Source: Oceanispirochaeta sp. (GTDB lineage: Bacteria; Spirochaetota; Spirochaetia; DSM-2461). Taken from it: a stretch of 64,000 bases of DNA. The notes below the pieces were generated by a model. The model was not told the DNA's origin, did no database searches, and worked only from the letters and a program-made list of their open reading frames with translations. The stretch is taken from NCBI GenBank assembly GCA_963663385.2, contig CAXXXD010000003.1, positions 32,001 through 96,000 on the forward strand, written 5' to 3'. Each line of letters starts with the position of its first letter. Positions within the stretch are counted from its first letter, which is position 1. This document shows, one piece after another, positions 24,579-52,917 of the stretch. The position numbers and the translations under genes are program-made.

Positions 24579-26399
24579 CTAATTCAGCAGAGCCCTGGTT
24601 TGCTGATCTTTTAACTGAAAAAAGGATACCGTTCTTTCCAGCATATTAGCCTGTTCCGCAAGGTCTTCCGAGGTAGCGGATATCTCCTCCGAAAAACTGG
24701 CGTTCTGCTGTACAACCCTGTCCAGTTGCAGAATCGCGCTGTTTACCTGTTCGACACCCGAACTCTGTTCATTGCTGGCTGCGCTTATCTCTCTTACCAG
24801 TTCGGATGTCTGCTTAATATTCACTATCAGTCTGGAGATCATTTCAGCTGCGGATTCCGCACTTTTACTCGTTTCCTGAGAGAGTTCGGTTATCTCCCCT
24901 GCGGCTTCCTGACTGTTCTCCGCCAGTTTCCTGACCTCAGATGCCACGACGGCAAAACCCTTGCCGTGTTCTCCCGCTCTGGCTGCCTCAATGGCGGCAT
25001 TCAGAGCCAGCAGGTTTGTATTTCTGGCAATTTCCTGAATAATGGAAATCTTCTCTATAATTGATTTCATGGCTTCCACAGCTTCTTTTACAGCGGCTCC
25101 GCTCTCTTCTGCATCCCTGGCAGCCTGTTCCGCCATTTTCTCGGTTTGCATGGCATTGTGGGCATTCTGGGAAATATTCGAGCCCATTTCCTCCATAGAG
25201 GCGGATACCTCTTCCGCTGCTGTCGCCTGGGAGGAAGCTCCTTCCGACATCTGTGCTGTGTTGGAGCTGAGCTGAACACTGCCCGATGCAACAGAACCGG
25301 ATGCTTCCATAACCTTCCCGACAACATCGGCTATCTTGACAGACATTTCCCGCAGGGCATTGGCAAGGTCTCCCACCTCATCATTCGTATAAACATCCAG
25401 AGTGGCATTCAAGTTTCCCCCCGCAAGTGTATTGGCAAACTGTACGCCCTTCTGCAGAGATCTGGTAATTCTGTTTAATATAGTTATGAAAACAAACAGG
25501 GAAATAAAGACTATGACAACCAGCAGGATAATGACATTCCTGACAAAGGCTGTCAGAGTAGAGGTAAATTCCGCAAGCGGGTAGGCAACGATCCATGTGG
25601 CTTCTTCATATTTCATGGCACCGTAAAAGGTATCGTTCAGCACCTTAAAACCCTCTCCCCTTACAGATTGTAAAAAGAACTTAAGCTCTTCGTCATTAAG
25701 GGATTTTCCAACCTTGTTCAATTCGGTATGTCCCATAATTGTAAAATTATTATCTATAAGAAAGGCTGTTCCATTGTGCGAGATCTGGAGACCTTCGAAA
25801 GTACTGGCAACGGAACTGGATTCGATTACACTCTGCAGCTCCTTTGGCGTAATTCCAATCTGTACAATCCCCGGAGCATCTTTTCTGGCCACTCCTATAT
25901 ACTGGAACAGTACTTTATCCACACCTCTGGGCGCCGGATCCTGAGCCAGGGTCAGGTCAGGATCCTTCAGAATCCGGAGGAAGGGTTTTGTCTGCTCCGA
26001 GGTTGCAAAATCAAACCCGAAAAATCCGGGAATATTCCCCCACCGGAGTACACCCTCGCCGTCGGTTACATGAATCTCGTCTATTCCGATCGCCTCGGCC
26101 AGGGCAGCCATGTTCTCCGTTTCGATTAAAGCGGGATCTGTCTGGATTGTTTCTGCAACAGATTTGGCAATACGGATGAAATTTTTATTAAGGGATTCTT
26201 TCAGAATATTAATCTGTTCCTGGGAATCCTTCAATGCCGTGGTAATCTCAGAAAGCTGCTCTTCAGCTGTAAGAAGCATCAAGTCATCGATGGAATTTCT
26301 CTGAAGTACATAGGAATAGGTTGAAACCAGAACGAGCGACACAATAAGGATCGCTGATATGGGAAGCAATATTTTAGTTTTAACACTGAGTTTTATCAT
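24579..26399 (-). CDS. methyl-accepting chemotaxis protein
   Basis: Two TM segments, [37 protein letters not shown]; its RBS is supplied by the IS right end. Confidence 0.95.
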
Positions 26400-26460
26400 T
26401 ATACAAACTCCTATAAAAAGTCAATCATAAGCCTATTAACAAGCTTACAATTGAACCGGA

Positions 26461-27573
26461 TTACCCAGTTTTTACGGCATTGAATGCAGCCGCCTGCATC
26501 TTCAAGTACTTATCATCCGGAACCATCTTCAACGGATCAAAGGGTTCACGGGTTTTCAATATGGAGTACACTACCGTACTCATCTTTCTTGCAGAGGCGA
26601 TAATACTCGTGCCGCTGCCCTTGTTCTTCTTCATCGCTCTGTACTTCGTCATGATACGGTAATTGCCAGTCGTTTTCCGAGTTCTAACCATTCCCATAAC
26701 ACACTGAACAAATGCCGTTCTCAGTTCTACAGCCCCTCTCTTTGTTATATGCCCATGATGAATCGTCTCATTGGAGTTCTGCACCCATGGTACAAGACCG
26801 GCATAAGCCGAATACTTCTTGGCACTGGCGTACCGCTTGATATCATCCGTATAGGCCCTAATAGTCGATGCCGTTATCAATCCGACTCCCGGGATCGTCT
26901 GCAATAACTGTACATCCTCATCTTCCTTTACAAGTTCCAGCAGGACTTTCTCTAACTGCTTGACCTGGTTCGAAACCTGATCTATCGTAGAAAGCAGCGG
27001 TTCTATCGCTTTGGCAGCGCTTCCGAAACTCCTATGGTCCACGAGACCGATGAGGATGCGCTGCCTTTCTTTTTTACTCTGCAGCGCAGCTCTTTTTGTT
27101 TCAATTCCATACCCTAGAAGCAGTCCGTGAACCTGATTCTTCAAAGATACGACTGATTTAACAAGGATAGTTCTGGATTTAAGAACTCTACGGATATCCT
27201 CACTCTCCTGAGAACAAAGCTGTGATTCGGGAAGCATATCTTTTTCCAAGAACTCTGCTAGAGTTCTGGCATCATGCTTATCCGTCTTTTTCACTGATTC
27301 ATTTACAACTTTGAATTTCAGTGTATTCACAACCACCACCTCAATCCCTGCTAGCAATAGCTTGTTACGGAAGAACCGGGCATTTCCTGTTGATTCCACT
27401 GCAGCCCTAACATCAAGGCCCTCTTCTGTATAGGACACTGCTTTCTCAAGAAATGCTCTGTAACCGTCCTCAGAGGTCGGATACATTCCTGATTCACAAA
27501 TGCTTCTATCATCACTCAGGAAACAGACTGTTAACTGGGATTTGTGCAGATCCACTCCGATACTCATCTTCAT
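26461..27573 (-). CDS. IS110 family DEDD recombinase/transposase
   Basis: Minus strand by direct reading (track says +); GVDLHK, VEST, KTDKHDA (DEDD), TIPGVG, AYAGLVP..QNS; ATG 27573 follows AGGAG. Confidence 0.95.
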   Translation of the reverse strand: MKMSIGVDLHKSQLTVCFLSDDRSICESGMYPTSEDGYRAFLEKAVSYTEEGLDVRAAVESTGNARFFRNKLLLAGIEVVVVNTLKFKVVNESVKKTDKHDARTLAEFLEKDMLPESQLCSQESEDIRRVLKSRTILVKSVVSLKNQVHGLLLGYGIETKRAALQSKKERQRILIGLVDHRSFGSAAKAIEPLLSTIDQVSNQVKQLEKVLLELVKEDEDVQLLQTIPGVGLITASTIRAYTDDIKRYASAKKYSAYAGLVPWVQNSNETIHHGHITKRGAVELRTAFVQCVMGMVRTRKTTGNYRIMTKYRAMKKNKGSGTSIIASARKMSTVVYSILKTREPFDPLKMVPDDKYLKMQAAAFNAVKTG

Positions 27574-27587
27574 ACCTTCGCTCCTAT

Positions 27588-27773
27588 TGCCTAAAACAGC
27601 GCCTGTACGGTGAATTGATTCCATTCTCCTATCCGGTCTCGAAGACCATTGAATGTTTCGGTCACGGCTCTTCATTCTCCTGTACGGTCTCGGAGACCAG
27701 TAAAAATGGCGAACAGTAACCTGGCTGTTCTAAACGATGTTTAGAACATTGTATCAATCCACAAGCCTATGAA
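27588..27773 (-). ncRNA. putative bridge RNA, copy 1
   Basis: Mirror of 33115-33300; boundaries approximate. Confidence 0.7.
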
Positions 27774-28116
27774 GACTTTTTATCATTCCTCCTGTAATAG
27801 AATTTAAAAATCTGTTCACTTTAAATAACGTATAAATGAACTATCTAAACCAATCCTAAAAAAACGTGGTATAGAGTGCTTGGTATCTCTATGAAGTATT
27901 GTGATTATTGAGTAGGGATAGTAATGCCCGTTTGTTAATTCTGTGAAGGCCGAACGGCCCGTCTCATGACAGCGGCCATCCTGCCCGGTAAAAACACCAG
28001 CTCAATTCAGCTCCGTTAAAAATACGTTTCCCGGGAGTCAAAGGCATATCAAATAAGTGGTATTAAAGATCATATATTTTGAAGAGATATCGGGGATCAG
28101 GGCTTATAGTAGGGAT

Positions 28117-32052: not shown

Positions 32053-33105
32053 ATGTCTACCGAACAGTATGAAACACGAACTATGGATTTAAAACGGGAA
32101 TCGGACAGGAAGGCGCTGGAGGCATTTCTTGATAAAGAAGAGCTTACCATGGAACAGGACCTTGACTATGCGGTCTGTCTGTTTGATGAGGATAAAATTA
32201 TTGCTTCCGGGTGTGCCGCGGGAAATGTTCTCAAATGCATCGCTGTTGATTCCGATTACCAGGGGCAGGCCCTGACAAACCGGGTTATATCCTATTTACG
32301 GCTTAGAGCCTATCATGAAGGTTACACCTCCCTTTTTCTGTTTACAAAACCGAAAAACGAAACCGTATTTTCAGAGCTGGGTTTTTATACCCTGGCGGCT
32401 TCTCCCGATGCCATTCTGATGGAAAACAGTCCCGAAGGGTGTGAAAACTATATTGAATCCCTGGAATTCCCTTCAGACGGTATCCCGGCCGCCTCAATTG
32501 TAATGAACTGCAACCCCTTTACTCTGGGGCACCGCTATCTGATAGAGACGGCCTGTAAAGAGAACCAAAGGGTTCATCTCTTTGTTGTAAAAGAGGATCT
32601 CTCTGTGTTCCCCTTTGCTGCCCGAATGGAAATGATCCGGAAAGGAACGGAGGATCTGAAAAATCTCTTTATTCATGAAGGCCGGGATTATATTATTTCC
32701 CGTGCCACTTTCCCGACCTATTTTATCAAGGACAGTAAAATTATAAACGACAGCCATACCCGGATTGATCTGGATCTTTTTGCCGGGAAAATCGCTCCCC
32801 CTCTATCAATTGTAAAGCGGTATGTGGGAGAAGAACCATTTGACATTGTAACATCCCGGTACAACCGGATGATGAAGGAAATTCTTCCGGAAAAGGGAAT
32901 AGAAGTTGTTGAGATTCCCCGTAAATCGGTGGGAGATAAAGCGGTAAGCGCTACGAAAGTCCGTCGTGCCATGGCAGATGAACAGTGGGACATGCTGAAA
33001 GAGTGGGTGCCCCGTACCACACTGGATTTTCTGCTTTCTCAGGAAGGACGGAAAATCGCAGAAACTATAAGGAAAAGTGCTCGAAAGCTTTTACAGGAGG
33101 AATGA
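32053..33105 (+). CDS. citC: [citrate (pro-3S)-lyase] ligase
   Basis: GNAT N-terminus, IVMNCNPFTLGHRYL, YIISRATFPTYF, RYVGEEP; stop codon supplied by the IS left end. Confidence 0.96.
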   Translation: MSTEQYETRTMDLKRESDRKALEAFLDKEELTMEQDLDYAVCLFDEDKIIASGCAAGNVLKCIAVDSDYQGQALTNRVISYLRLRAYHEGYTSLFLFTKPKNETVFSELGFYTLAASPDAILMENSPEGCENYIESLEFPSDGIPAASIVMNCNPFTLGHRYLIETACKENQRVHLFVVKEDLSVFPFAARMEMIRKGTEDLKNLFIHEGRDYIISRATFPTYFIKDSKIINDSHTRIDLDLFAGKIAPPLSIVKRYVGEEPFDIVTSRYNRMMKEILPEKGIEVVEIPRKSVGDKAVSATKVRRAMADEQWDMLKEWVPRTTLDFLLSQEGRKIAETIRKSARKLLQEE

Positions 33106-33114
33106 TAAAAAGTC

Positions 33115-33300
33115 TTCATAGGCTAGTGGATTGATACAATGTTCTAAACATCGTTTAGAACAGCCAGGTTACTGTTCGCCATTTTTACTGGTCTCCGAGA
33201 CCGTACAGGAGAATGAAGAGCCGTGACCGAAACATTCAATGGTCTTCGAGACCGGATAGGAGAATGGAATCAATTCACCGTACAGGCGCTGTTTTAGGCA
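33115..33300 (+). ncRNA. putative bridge RNA, copy 2
   Basis: 5' hairpin TGTTCTAAAC/GTTTAGAACA (33140-33162); two modules with GGTCT(C/T)CGAGACC hairpins next to target-like TACAGGAG and donor-like ATAGGAG; boundaries approximate. Confidence 0.72.
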
Positions 33301-33314
33301 ATAGGAGCGAAGGT

Positions 33315-34427
33315 ATGAAGATGAGTATCGGAGTGGATCTGCACAAATCCCAGTTAACAGTCTGTTTCCTGAGTGATGATAGAAGCATTTGTGAATCAGG
33401 AATGTATCCGACCTCTGAGGACGGTTACAGAGCATTTCTTGAGAAAGCAGTGTCCTATACAGAAGAGGGCCTTGATGTTAGGGCTGCAGTGGAATCAACA
33501 GGAAATGCCCGGTTCTTCCGTAACAAGCTATTGCTAGCAGGGATTGAGGTGGTGGTTGTGAATACACTGAAATTCAAAGTTGTAAATGAATCAGTGAAAA
33601 AGACGGATAAGCATGATGCCAGAACTCTAGCAGAGTTCTTGGAAAAAGATATGCTTCCCGAATCACAGCTTTGTTCTCAGGAGAGTGAGGATATCCGTAG
33701 AGTTCTTAAATCCAGAACTATCCTTGTTAAATCAGTCGTATCTTTGAAGAATCAGGTTCACGGACTGCTTCTAGGGTATGGAATTGAAACAAAAAGAGCT
33801 GCGCTGCAGAGTAAAAAAGAAAGGCAGCGCATCCTCATCGGTCTCGTGGACCATAGGAGTTTCGGAAGCGCTGCCAAAGCGATAGAACCGCTGCTTTCTA
33901 CGATAGATCAGGTTTCGAACCAGGTCAAGCAGTTAGAGAAAGTCCTGCTGGAACTTGTAAAGGAAGATGAGGATGTACAGTTATTGCAGACGATCCCGGG
34001 AGTCGGATTGATAACGGCATCGACTATTAGGGCCTATACGGATGATATCAAGCGGTACGCCAGTGCCAAGAAGTATTCGGCTTATGCCGGTCTTGTACCA
34101 TGGGTGCAGAACTCCAATGAGACGATTCATCATGGGCATATAACAAAGAGAGGGGCTGTAGAACTGAGAACGGCATTTGTTCAGTGTGTTATGGGAATGG
34201 TTAGAACTCGGAAAACGACTGGCAATTACCGTATCATGACGAAGTACAGAGCGATGAAGAAGAACAAGGGCAGCGGCACGAGTATTATCGCCTCTGCAAG
34301 AAAGATGAGTACGGTAGTGTACTCCATATTGAAAACCCGTGAACCCTTTGATCCGTTGAAGATGGTTCCGGATGATAAGTACTTGAAGATGCAGGCGGCT
34401 GCATTCAATGCCGTAAAAACTGGGTAA
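33315..34427 (+). CDS. IS110 family DEDD recombinase/transposase (370 aa)
   Basis: DEDD motifs as in copy 1; ATAGGAG RBS at 33301; the first catalytic Asp (GVDLHK) falls near the N-terminus as usual. Confidence 0.95.
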   Translation: MKMSIGVDLHKSQLTVCFLSDDRSICESGMYPTSEDGYRAFLEKAVSYTEEGLDVRAAVESTGNARFFRNKLLLAGIEVVVVNTLKFKVVNESVKKTDKHDARTLAEFLEKDMLPESQLCSQESEDIRRVLKSRTILVKSVVSLKNQVHGLLLGYGIETKRAALQSKKERQRILIGLVDHRSFGSAAKAIEPLLSTIDQVSNQVKQLEKVLLELVKEDEDVQLLQTIPGVGLITASTIRAYTDDIKRYASAKKYSAYAGLVPWVQNSNETIHHGHITKRGAVELRTAFVQCVMGMVRTRKTTGNYRIMTKYRAMKKNKGSGTSIIASARKMSTVVYSILKTREPFDPLKMVPDDKYLKMQAAAFNAVKTG

Positions 34428-34486
34428 TCCGGTTCAATTGTAAGCTTGTTAATAGGCTTATGATTGACTTTTTATAGGAGTAGAGA

Positions 34487-34783
34487 ATGAAAATTGTAAA
34501 AACGGGTATGGCCGGATCTCTCGAATCCAGTGATGTCCTGATAACTGTCGACAGCAATCACGGTAAAGGGCGTGACGTCAGCCTGAGCAGTATTGTCAAA
34601 AGACAGTATGGAAAACAGATCCTGAAAGTGGTTGATGATACCCTGGATACCCTGTCCATCAAGGATGTGAAAGTCCGTCTGGAAGACAAGGGCGCCCTGG
34701 ACTGTACGATCCGGGCCCGGCTTGAAGCGGCCGTCTACCGGGCTGCCGGAAGTGAAACCTATCCCTGGGAGAACCTGTCATGA
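34487..34783 (+). CDS. citD: citrate lyase acyl carrier protein (gamma)
   Basis: AGSLESSD attachment motif, DKGALDCTIRAR. Confidence 0.97.
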   Translation: MKIVKTGMAGSLESSDVLITVDSNHGKGRDVSLSSIVKRQYGKQILKVVDDTLDTLSIKDVKVRLEDKGALDCTIRARLEAAVYRAAGSETYPWENLS

Positions 34784-50856: not shown

Positions 50857-52917
50857 TCAGAATTCTACAAAACTATCTTCATGACTTGCGGTATATTCAA
50901 TCTCTGTCATTTCCTTCGGCAGTTGAGATTTCGGCTGAGACTGGAATCCGGATACAGGATTATATTCCACTTCTGTCTTCTTCTTTCTTTTCCCCGCAGG
51001 ACTTCTTCCATTCTGTATAAGCGGAGTAGTCTCCGAGGCATCAATTTTGAAAAAGGAGATAAGCTGTTTGAGGTTCTCCGCCTGGGAGGAGAGCTCTTCC
51101 GCCATGGCGGCTGCTTCCTCGGATGCAGATGCATTCTGCTGGATCACCGTATCCAGCTGGTTGATAGCCTGACTGACCTGACTGGCTCCGGATTTCTGCT
51201 CCTTGCTGGAGGCGCTTATCTCCTGTATCAGATCGGCGGTATTCTTGATCTTCGGAACAATCTCCTGCATCAGCTCTCCCGTCCTGATGGCCTGATGGAC
51301 GCTGCTGCCGGCCAGTTCGGATATTTCATTGGCGGCAGTCTTGCTGCTGGAAGCCAGTTTCCCCACTTCCGCTGCTACAACGGCAAATCCTTTTCCATGT
51401 TCTCCCGCCCTTGCCGCCTCTATAGCGGCATTCAGACTGAGCATATTGGTAGAGCGGGCAATCTCTTCTATAATGCTGATCTTTTCGGAGATATTCTTCA
51501 TGGCTTCCACGGTCTCCAGAACAGAACTCCCTCCCTGTTCCACCACATTTGCCGCTTCCCGGGAGATGCTCTCGGTTTGTACCGAGTTATCCGAGTTCTG
51601 TTCAATATTGGCTCCCATCTGCTCCATGGAGGAGGATATCTCCTCAGCCGAAGCGGCCTGCTCGGCGGCGCCCTGTGAAATCTGCTGAGCCGTGGAACTG
51701 AGCTGGATGCTGCCGTCGGCCACGTTGTCCGCCCCCCGGATAACCTGGGAGACAACCTCTGTCAGGCTTCTTTTCATATGATTCAGGGCATCCGCCAGCT
51801 GTCCTATTTCATCCTTCTGATTCAGGTCCACTGTAACAGTCAGGTCTCCGCTTGATAGTTTCTCCGCAAAAGCTACTCCCTTGAGAAGGGGCACCGTAAT
51901 CCCTCTGGCTATTATGTATGCCAGGAGTATCCCGATCACAAACGCAATAACACTCATTATCAGGACACCCTGTCTTGTTATAATGGCAGCCTCAATCATC
52001 TGCTGATCGGTCATCAGGTTGCTGCGGACTTCACTTCTCAATTCACCCAGAATCGTTTGAACTCCGACCAGGGACGGCTGGGTTTTTTCCGTAAAAATAC
52101 GGTTGGCTTCATTCATATTAATCAGATCGTCTTCTGCCAGTGCTTTCAGATTGCGCAGGTGTTCGAGTGTGCGTTCCAGCAGAGGATACGTTGTATTGGT
52201 GAAGAAAGCAATTCCCGCTGTATTGCTCCTTTTCATCTGCTGTTCAAGGGTAACAGCCGATTCATGGAGTTGTTCGTGAACAGCTATCATCCGGTCCCAC
52301 TCCGCTTGAAATTCCGGTCCGGCTTCCCGGTAGATCTTCTCCGCTTCGGGTGACTGGAGCCACTGCCCCAGTTCACACTTGTCCGGATTTTTTTCTACGG
52401 AAAGGGATGTCTTTTTTGCCAGCAGCGCCGACTGTATGGTTTCCGCCCAGACATGGTGGTCGTTTGCCCTGGCTGCCATCAGGCCGGGCAGCATGGGATC
52501 GGCCTGCCTGAAAATCGACTTTATTTCCGAGGCGGATTCATGGAGTAGTCTATGGGGCTCTTCGATGTTTTTCAGTATAGGTTCCAGTGAAGGAATCATA
52601 CTGACTGCTTCTTCCCTCTCCTTTCCATAGAGCCATTTACCGAAGGCGCACTGATGATCGTCCATTTCCACATTCAGTTCGGTTATGTTTTTGTCTGTCA
52701 GCAGGGCGTTGACTTCCTGCATCCAGTTAAGATGATCCACCTCTTTCTGAGCCAGGGACGCATCCAGTTTATTCCCCTCAATGACTTCCCCTGCATTATC
52801 CAGGATCTGTGAAATCCCCAGAAAGGCCCAGACGGCAATCGCTGTCAGAAGGAGTATAATCATACCGAACCCGATATACATTTTTTTAGAAATTTTGATA
52901 TCTTTCCACCCGTTCAT
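50857..52917 (-). CDS. methyl-accepting chemotaxis protein with tandem CZB domains
   Basis: Two H..W..C..G.W..H..LH motifs between TM1 and TM2; HAMP; MCP signalling domain. Confidence 0.9.

Follow-up and report, generated by a model that had tools for sequence, protein, structure and literature searches.

What directs a mobile element to the few nucleotides between a Shine-Dalgarno sequence and a start codon? The question is raised by a 64,000-nt stretch of Oceanispirochaeta sp. DNA (assembly GCA_963663385.2, contig CAXXXD010000003.1, positions 32,001 to 96,000; hereafter the window, from whose first letter all coordinates are counted), in which the citrate lyase genes citC and citD are separated by an insertion sequence (IS) of the IS110/IS1111 family at 33100-34480. 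This element carries a recombinase gene of 370 aa (33315..34427, + strand), with 215 nt of non-coding DNA upstream and 53 nt downstream. Our answer is that the left non-coding end very probably encodes a bridge (seek) RNA, which would pair the joined ends of the element with a genomic target via the DEDD recombinase. Three of the four guide segments that we propose are supported across about 100 related elements, namely the 3' segment of the first loop module and both the 5' and 3' segments of the second. The anatomy of the left end, the conservation of its fold, the match of these three segments to DNA and the pattern of insertion sites are directly visible, and all the sequence features listed in a first-pass annotation of this region lie where that annotation had placed them.

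The left end forms a hairpin and two similar loop modules

The left end, 215 nt long, comprises a 5' hairpin and two look-alike (pseudo-symmetric) loop modules inside an outer stem. None of 200 shuffled sequences folded as well (z -2.99), and a single one of 200 did so in a second test (z -3.26). For comparison we gathered relatives of the element, 76 loci from genome contigs and the best 80 of 259 from metagenomes. Run on 29 distinct left ends, RNAalifold gave a consensus of 26 pairs, 12 of which show compensatory changes, and recovered the module-1 stems, both inner hairpins and the outer stem. A structure of 29 pairs, written out by hand and scored on the alignment of the same 29 left ends, is paired in 97.3% of cells versus 22-41% when the partners are slid; 12 of its pairs have changed on both sides, and doubly changed cells number 74 versus 23.2 in shuffles. 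Several conserved U.G pairs would read A.C on the opposite strand, which identifies the + strand as the RNA strand. Shuffles and homologues alike thus bear out the folded RNA proposed in the first-pass annotation.

The outer stem, formed by 33126..33135 and 33269..33278 (both +), encloses the hairpin and both modules, and both sides have changed in four of its five pairs in alignment columns 34-38 with 212-216. The 5' hairpin, TGTTCTAAAC/GTTTAGAACA at 33140..33162 (+), had been recognized from the start and is also a perfect 10-nt inverted repeat; it aligns poorly because its sequence varies, yet in 81 of 84 distinct homologues a hairpin at this place exceeds shuffles in stability. Module 1 (33167..33228, +) consists of the proposed target-binding loop and its closing stems, whose strands (33167-33183 and 33212-33228) are those originally read as paired and whose helices (columns 92-106 with 151-165) are 96.5% paired in the homologues, with three pairs changed on both sides. 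Its inner hairpin, GGTCTCCGAGACC at 33190..33202 (+), is flanked by a conserved U (33189) and a conserved G (33203); columns 114-118 with 136-140 display U.G in 28 of 29 rows, together with GC to AU and UA to CG exchanges. Before this hairpin lies the 5' loop segment UUUUUACU (33182..33189, +), which contains TTTACT at 33184-33189, and after it the segment GTACAGGAG (33203-33211, +), within which UACAGGAG (33204..33211, +) is the 3' loop segment.

Module 2 (33233..33266, +), the proposed donor-binding loop, is composed of CATTCAAT (33233-33240), the inner hairpin GGTCTTCGAGACC (33241-33253), GGATAGGAG (33254-33262) and AATG (33263-33266), all on the + strand. The hairpin (columns 177-181 with 188-192) is 100% paired, with three pairs changed on both sides, and the loop is closed by a two-pair stem whose C-G and A-U pairs are kept in 29/29 rows.

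Module 2 matches both ends of the element

The 5' segment of module 2, CAUUC (33233..33237, +), is complementary to the first five nucleotides of the left end, GAATG (33100..33104, +), which would form the right donor arm. These five bases vary among relatives, where GAATG, GCACG, GTATG, GAACG, GCATG, GTACG, GAGTG and GGATG are found, each with a perfect complement in module 2. Over 15 distinct combinations, drawn from the 101 of 109 rows with complete columns, the 5-mer and the left end form 66 of 75 possible Watson-Crick pairs versus 51.0 by permutation (p 5e-5). The first-pass annotation had pointed to this complementarity and allowed that the 5-mer might instead be stem. As a mere RNA stem with the downstream A-N-U-G, the 5-mer gives a worse fit at its third and fourth bases.

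The 3' segment of module 2, AUAGGAG (33256..33262, +), is identical to the last seven nucleotides of the element, the ATAGGAG at 34474..34480 (+) that had been singled out as its right end. This stretch corresponds to the left donor arm plus core, and it is now the Shine-Dalgarno sequence of citD. The match holds in nearly all rows; because both the segment and the right end are nearly invariant, it is an identity without covariation. Two loci (L041 and L138), in which an insertion replaces AUAGGAG in module 2, are probably decayed copies. Separately, the right end of another relative is partly duplicated (L039:2140-2180).

Module 1 covaries with the left half of the target

The 3' loop segment of module 1, UACAGGAG, is identical to the left target half plus core and would pair with the bottom strand. 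At the citC-citD site this half is TACAGGAG (33092..33099, +), the former Shine-Dalgarno sequence of citD, which ends in the presumed AG core. Six of the ten copies in the genome of the organism itself are preceded by TACAGGAG and the other four by versions with one or two distal mismatches, at positions -6 to -8. To compare guides with flanks among the relatives, we took the ten bases to the left of each element and grouped the loci by their module-1 guide pair, which gave 70 families with 103 distinct sites; only rows with complete guide columns and at least nine flank bases were used, and each combination of guide and flank entered the count a single time. The strongest effect is at position -7, where guide and flank match in 56.9 of the 70 families versus 23.1 with guides permuted (p 2e-4), followed by -6 (66.7 versus 53.0, p 2e-4), -5 (66.8 versus 64.0, p 0.0014) and -4 (69.5 versus 67.5, p 0.014). 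Positions -8 and -9 gave no covariation signal in these families and sites. A test on 26 families yielded the same picture, and rare changes of AGGAG are matched in guide and flank, as in L157 (CGGAG) and L061 (GAGAG). The module-1 3' segment, which the first-pass annotation had equated with the target's left flank plus core, therefore covaries with that flank at -6 and -7, and the comparison of guides and targets across homologues, which the annotation had put forward as a check, comes out positive on the left flank.

Several observations concern the guide segments and their surroundings. The motif ACCGTACAGG, whose recurrence had been noticed earlier, is found at 33200-33209 and again at 33277-33286. 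The second occurrence was considered as a third guide and rejected, columns 217-226 showing no consistent covariation with either flank, as identity or as complement; the motif is conserved in all homologues whatever their guide. Inspection of the table by eye revealed no handshake-type pairing of the two bases after each 3' guide (A-N) with the other DNA partner. In one relative the 3' arm of the module-1 hairpin is tandemly duplicated together with the guide (L064:~870-900). A stretch of the recombinase gene (33832-33854) is 77-78% complementary to the hairpin-plus-guide of both modules (33189-33210, 33239-33261), which may be chance because the module hairpin is palindromic. Finally, in the metagenome-assembled genome (MAG) OY776510, the left flank looks like the right end of the element, not like the guide, in nine of 15 cases, and three copies sit directly behind miniature elements. 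A donor-arm "half-match" insertion has been reported for IS621 (10.64898/2026.08.31.748434) and might, by analogy, apply to these flanks.

The element lands between a Shine-Dalgarno sequence and its start codon

Each of the ten own copies stands directly after AGGAG, and an ATG on its strand follows 6-8 nt beyond it. Relatives with readable flanks follow xxAGGAG, with a same-strand ATG mostly 4-9 nt downstream, and after insertion it is the right end of the element that supplies ATAGGAG to the downstream gene. Even loci with 33% protein identity (L072-L085, from the MAG Lentisphaeria CP091727) are inserted after xxAAGGAG and before ATG. They have a subterminal repeat of their own and an upstream non-coding region of ~280 nt that contains GAAAGGAG. 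Since they share the Shine-Dalgarno siting, the habit spans a wide lineage.

The exact nature of the insertion is revealed by an allele that lacks it. A contig from a public run of a related organism (X6) joins 33088 to 34470, with 5 nt ambiguous. It thereby skips exactly 1381 nt, which makes the element (33100..34480, +) a clean 1381-bp insertion without duplication. AGGAG stands at both junctions, so that the boundary could be placed anywhere within it; we draw it as 33100-34480. Neither terminal inverted repeats nor a target-site duplication were found, and the junctions of the ten copies have in common only AGGAG, which pre-existed in the target. Over 289 + 36 nt the empty citC-citD junction of X6 differs at a single base, a T for the C at 33094, and with this T the empty site matches the final 11 nt of the element exactly.

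Where within AGGAG the strands are exchanged is narrowed by three relatives (L061, L152 and L155) in which the left flank has only GAG in common with the right end, confining the exchange to the last three bases. By analogy with IS621, in which both guide segments end at core-binding bases, the exchange core is most likely AG (CT on the bottom strand). The reading of the two modules as target- and donor-binding loops with an AG/CT core, proposed in the first-pass annotation, is thus supported by RNA-DNA covariation in related elements.

A model for guided insertion

We propose that module 2 would act as the donor loop, pairing with the left end through CAUUC and with the right end through AUAGGAG, and that module 1 would act as the target loop, in which UACAGGAG would read the left target and UUUUUACU may add a few pairs with AG and the A-rich spacer. 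Strand exchange would take place within the GAG common to donor and target. An exchange there would put the element behind the Shine-Dalgarno sequence and ahead of the spacer, in the orientation of the gene, to which the right end would give a new AGGAG. By analogy with known systems, the guides may be reprogrammable.

Both the RNA and the recombinase message would originate from an excised circle. The right end contains a -35-like TTGACT (34464..34469, +), conserved in homologues, and the left end a -10-like TAAAAA (33106-33111, +), to which we assign a putative promoter role. Circle formation would bring TTGACT 17 nt upstream of TAAAAA and rebuild a promoter, as in IS621 and ISEc21, and transcription starting near 33118 would then produce guide RNA and recombinase message. 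The predicted circle junction is ...TTGACTTTTTATAGGAG joined to GAATGATAAAAAG..., that is, ...TTTTTATAGGAG next to GAATG, with CAGGAG not carried. No promoter-like site was found on the + strand upstream of the RNA in the integrated copy. The -10-like motif lies inside the left subterminal inverted repeat, ATAAAAAGTC (33105..33114, +), which is conserved in homologues and forms a perfect 10-nt repeat with its right partner GACTTTTTAT (34466..34475, +). Just inside the right end there is also a terminator-like hairpin of 15 pairs followed by a T run that belongs to the subterminal repeat (34434..34467, +); this hairpin might block read-through into the downstream gene.

Points against the model and competing explanations

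A number of findings weigh against a guide RNA in this left end or limit what it explains. A scan of 32900-34700 against Rfam 15 (E up to 10) returned four chance-level matches, none of them relevant, and a joined right-end/left-end form (tandem copy or circle) was not found among the loci or in the genome. A look through public sequencing runs for this stretch turned up no RNA run. Natural variation of the left guide is limited to two positions, -6 and -7. The guide families are related to each other, so that the permutation p-values overstate independence, although the effect at -7 is still large. Of the 355 TACAGGAG sites in the genome, 349 are unoccupied, and occupancy is therefore not predictable from the guide alone. 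The T at 33094 in the X6 empty allele is unexplained by the model, because a core exchange would not leave it there; it could be a strain difference or the product of a deletion between the flanking 11-nt imperfect repeats. What we infer comprises transcription, recombinase binding, the circle-junction promoter, the precise core and the part played by the 5' segment of module 1. To these points are added those concerning the right half of the target, which bear on a rival explanation of their own.

The right target half at citD is TAGAGA (34481..34486, +), the spacer before the start codon. The first-pass annotation had taken TTTACT for a guide to this side; the sequence is indeed present at 33184-33189, and its role as a guide is weakly supported. 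The 5' segment of module 1 that contains it, UUUUUACU, is possibly a short or discontiguous right-flank guide, which would pair on the top strand with the core AG plus an A-rich right flank, ideally AG + TAAAAA; a perfect AGTAAA is found at two of the ten own sites. Covariation with the right flank reached significance in no register across 24 families, and across 77 families (117 sites) only two of 99 matrix cells stand out (z 2.9 and 3.4). These two are adjacent on one antiparallel diagonal. The match to AGTAAAAA is 3.8/6 at occupied sites (n=10) versus 2.06/6 in 107 unoccupied gene starts preceded by ACAGGAG (p 3e-4), the gain being confined to +3 to +6, a stretch with an excess of A; matching for AT content leaves the enrichment at p 0.04, and composition could explain the A-rich flanks. 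At position +1, where UUUUUACU predicts T, five own sites have T and five have A. The base expected to pair with the core G is C in the own element and A in most relatives, and one relative (L031) matches at six of seven. Given the weak covariation of families, the enrichment of A-rich spacers and the A opposite the core G, we treat the segment as a possible guide.

The same results could be accounted for by one-armed target recognition, in which the module-1 5' segment would be a spacer and the right side would be set by the AG core and by the easy melting of A/T-rich DNA. Such a scheme would be consistent with covariation that is not significant in 24 families and marginal in 77, with the even split between T and A at +1, and with the A that most homologues have at the penultimate base, meant for the core G. 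It is harder to reconcile with the better fit of occupied than of empty sites to AGTAAAAA, which persists at p 0.04 after AT matching, with the adjacency of the two top covariation cells and with the match of L031; moreover, IS621 and IS1111 elements use guides for the two strands alike (PMC11208160, PMC11187229). We regard one-armed recognition as possible, on the unlikely side.

Another proposal would be that the left end is a mere 5' leader controlling translation of the recombinase, that the protein itself picks AGGAG and the subterminal repeats, and that the matches to flanks are Shine-Dalgarno-like decoys. AGGAG does lie inside both 3' segments, the 10-bp subterminal repeats are invariant, and binding of the RNA by the protein is a supposition of our model. 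There is also a conserved alternative helix between the 5' hairpin and sequence that closely precedes the ribosome-binding site of the recombinase: the segment at 33288..33299 (+), ~5 nt upstream of the recombinase Shine-Dalgarno sequence, is complementary to the 3' arm of the hairpin (33153-33162), and across 84 distinct rows the native duplexes have a mean of -18.8 kcal/mol versus -13.4 with the partners of other homologues, so that this pairing, too, covaries. Since this helix crosses the outer stem, it must be a pseudoknot or part of an alternative fold, and it might couple guide-RNA folding to recombinase translation. A decoy, however, need not follow positions -6 and -7 of the insertion sites of its family, nor the first five bases of the left end, and the same protein family is reported to use such RNAs (PMC11208160, PMC11187229). 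We consider a mere leader very unlikely.

Hardly credible is a reading in which the modules are swapped: the donor would be read by module 1 (UACAGGAG) and an unvarying target, TAGGAG, by module 2 (AUAGGAG), with the crossover left of -6 and CAGGAG owned by the element. The IS-free X6 allele, ..GCTTTTATAGGAGTAGAG, is indeed the uninterrupted site that it predicts, and every copy and homologue has ATAGGAG at its right junction. Yet positions -5 to -7 vary among otherwise identical copies (A at -6 in L005, G at -7 in L007; A in nine and T in five of 15 copies at -7 in the OY776510 family; one JC231 copy different at -5), which marks those bases as flank, not element, and the GAG-only sites put the exchange within the last 3 nt.

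Copies of the element and its neighbors

The block of 1381 bp is common to ten copies in the organism's own genome, which have 0-2 internal differences each. The citC-citD copy lies between citC, encoding citrate lyase ligase (32053-33105), on its left and citD, encoding the acyl carrier subunit (34487-34783, start codon at 34487), on its right. Its sole internal difference is an A at 33125, where the other nine copies and the DNA contigs of all four sequencing runs have T. A second, inverted copy in the window (26408..27788, - strand) precedes an MCP gene (24579-26399, minus strand; Pfam MCPsignal and HAMP), which agrees with the MCP site named in the first-pass annotation; its right flank is TTTG. 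In the own genome a search for solo ends or footprints returned 25 extra TTTATAGGAG and eight extra GAATGATAAAA sites, none extending into element sequence, and a search for short end-pairs found no miniature elements.

Miniature elements do occur in the MAG OY776510, where they measure ~110-170 bp and lie directly upstream of full copies (L015:684-790, L016:~640-790, L022:~640-790). Their termini are those of the IS (GAATGATAAAA... to ...TTATAGGAG), and inside they carry the left end once more, inverted. Elsewhere in the window, a 197-nt direct repeat of 71% identity links 24883-25079, within the MCP gene region, to 51314-51510.

A layout that combines IS110 and IS1111 features

The recombinase displays the two domains of its family, with Pfam matches to DEDD_Tnp_IS110 (PF01548; N-terminal DEDD, RuvC-like; E 8.7e-21) and Transposase_20 (PF02371; C-terminal Tnp; E 4.6e-19) that are both above curated cut-offs. 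PDB chains of the IS621 and ISCro4 transposases are matched with E about 1e-15, mainly over the C-terminal half, so that protein similarity to IS621 is low. The alignment places the S of ..VQNSNE.. opposite the S of ..YESGSS.. (the ESG stretch) in IS621, whose conserved serine of the C-terminal domain is given as S241 in PMC11208158 (motif description in PMC11187229). A tblastn search against plasmids returned matches named only "IS110 family transposase," the best of them 74.9% identical and located on a Thiospirochaeta perfilievii plasmid.

The likeness to IS621, of the IS110 group (Durrant et al. 2024, PMC11208160; Hiraizumi et al. 2024, PMC11208158), extends beyond the DEDD recombinase with its Tnp domain and aligned serine. 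The RNA likewise has its place in the left end, ahead of the gene, and begins with a 5' stem-loop, after which come the target loop and the donor loop, built much alike. Each loop has two proposed guide segments around an inner hairpin, each ending at core-binding bases; a U precedes and a G follows the hairpin (U59 and G72 in IS621), the donor pairing is discontiguous on one side, and a putative -35 lies in the right end and a putative -10 in the left. The order of the guides is, however, different. According to PMC11208158, the bottom-strand guides of IS621 come first (left target guide 50-58, left donor guide 123-130) and the top-strand guides after the hairpin (right target guide 77-80, right donor guide 157-165), an order that PMC11187229 also gives for ISEc21. 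In the element studied here the bottom-strand guide is the 3' one (33204-33211 and 33256-33262) and is also the longer. From the RNA's point of view, this reversal would leave the geometry that of IS621, with the CT core on the strand opposite to the gene. Unlike IS621, the element has 10-bp subterminal inverted repeats, an outer stem that closes the whole RNA and a donor loop closed by 2 bp, and it targets Shine-Dalgarno sequences, whereas IS621 targets repetitive extragenic palindromic (REP) elements.

Several of these differences are likenesses to the IS1111 elements with seekRNAs (ISEc11, ISPa11 and ISKpn4; Siddiquee et al. 2024, PMC11187229). There too the order is reversed according to that paper, with the top-strand match 5', so that the complement of the top strand stands 5' of that of the bottom strand, as is clear in the donor loop of our element. 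Subterminal inverted repeats with short terminal extensions (the repeats of ~7-17 bp in PMC11208160) and orientation-specific insertion without duplication are further common features. The position of the non-coding region sets the element apart, being upstream of the gene; PMC11187229 places it downstream in almost all IS1111 members, with ISMtsp17 and a few others as exceptions. The insertion habit has a precedent in IS900 and IS901 of Mycobacterium avium, also of the IS110 family, which land between the Shine-Dalgarno sequence and the start codon according to PMC2942039 (citing Doran 1997 and Inglis 2003); we did not find an IS900 site consensus in PMC8141618.

What we describe is very probably a true bridge/seek RNA, whose layout mixes IS110 and IS1111 traits and which we place by those traits. 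We infer from it that the IS110 and IS1111 arrangements are the same RNA-DNA geometry with the polarity of the site flipped relative to the gene. The mechanism as such is not new: most IS110 and IS1111 elements can be expected to have bridge/seek RNAs, and tens of thousands of them, with varied structures, have been catalogued in recent surveys (10.64898/2026.10.21.760802), which may already contain this clade. Relatives with as little as 33% protein identity turned up in MAGs of Spirochaetota, Desulfobacterota, Lentisphaerota and other groups. We raise tentatively, as an idea with less than even prospects, that these elements could form a broad and undescribed lineage of RNA-guided ISs whose bridge RNA is hard-wired to the Shine-Dalgarno sequence and whose layout is intermediate between IS110 and IS1111. 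If so, AGGAG would serve at once as constant target guide, donor guide, core and right end, and each insertion would give the downstream gene a new ribosome-binding site.

For the family, the value of this element is that its guides are directly readable and can be checked against about 100 natural relatives, and that its mixed features bear on the relation between the IS110 and IS1111 arrangements. It provides an RNA-level explanation for the long-known landing of some family members between Shine-Dalgarno sequence and start codon. For the annotation of this organism, the ten copies mark ten genes with a ribosome-binding site supplied by the element.

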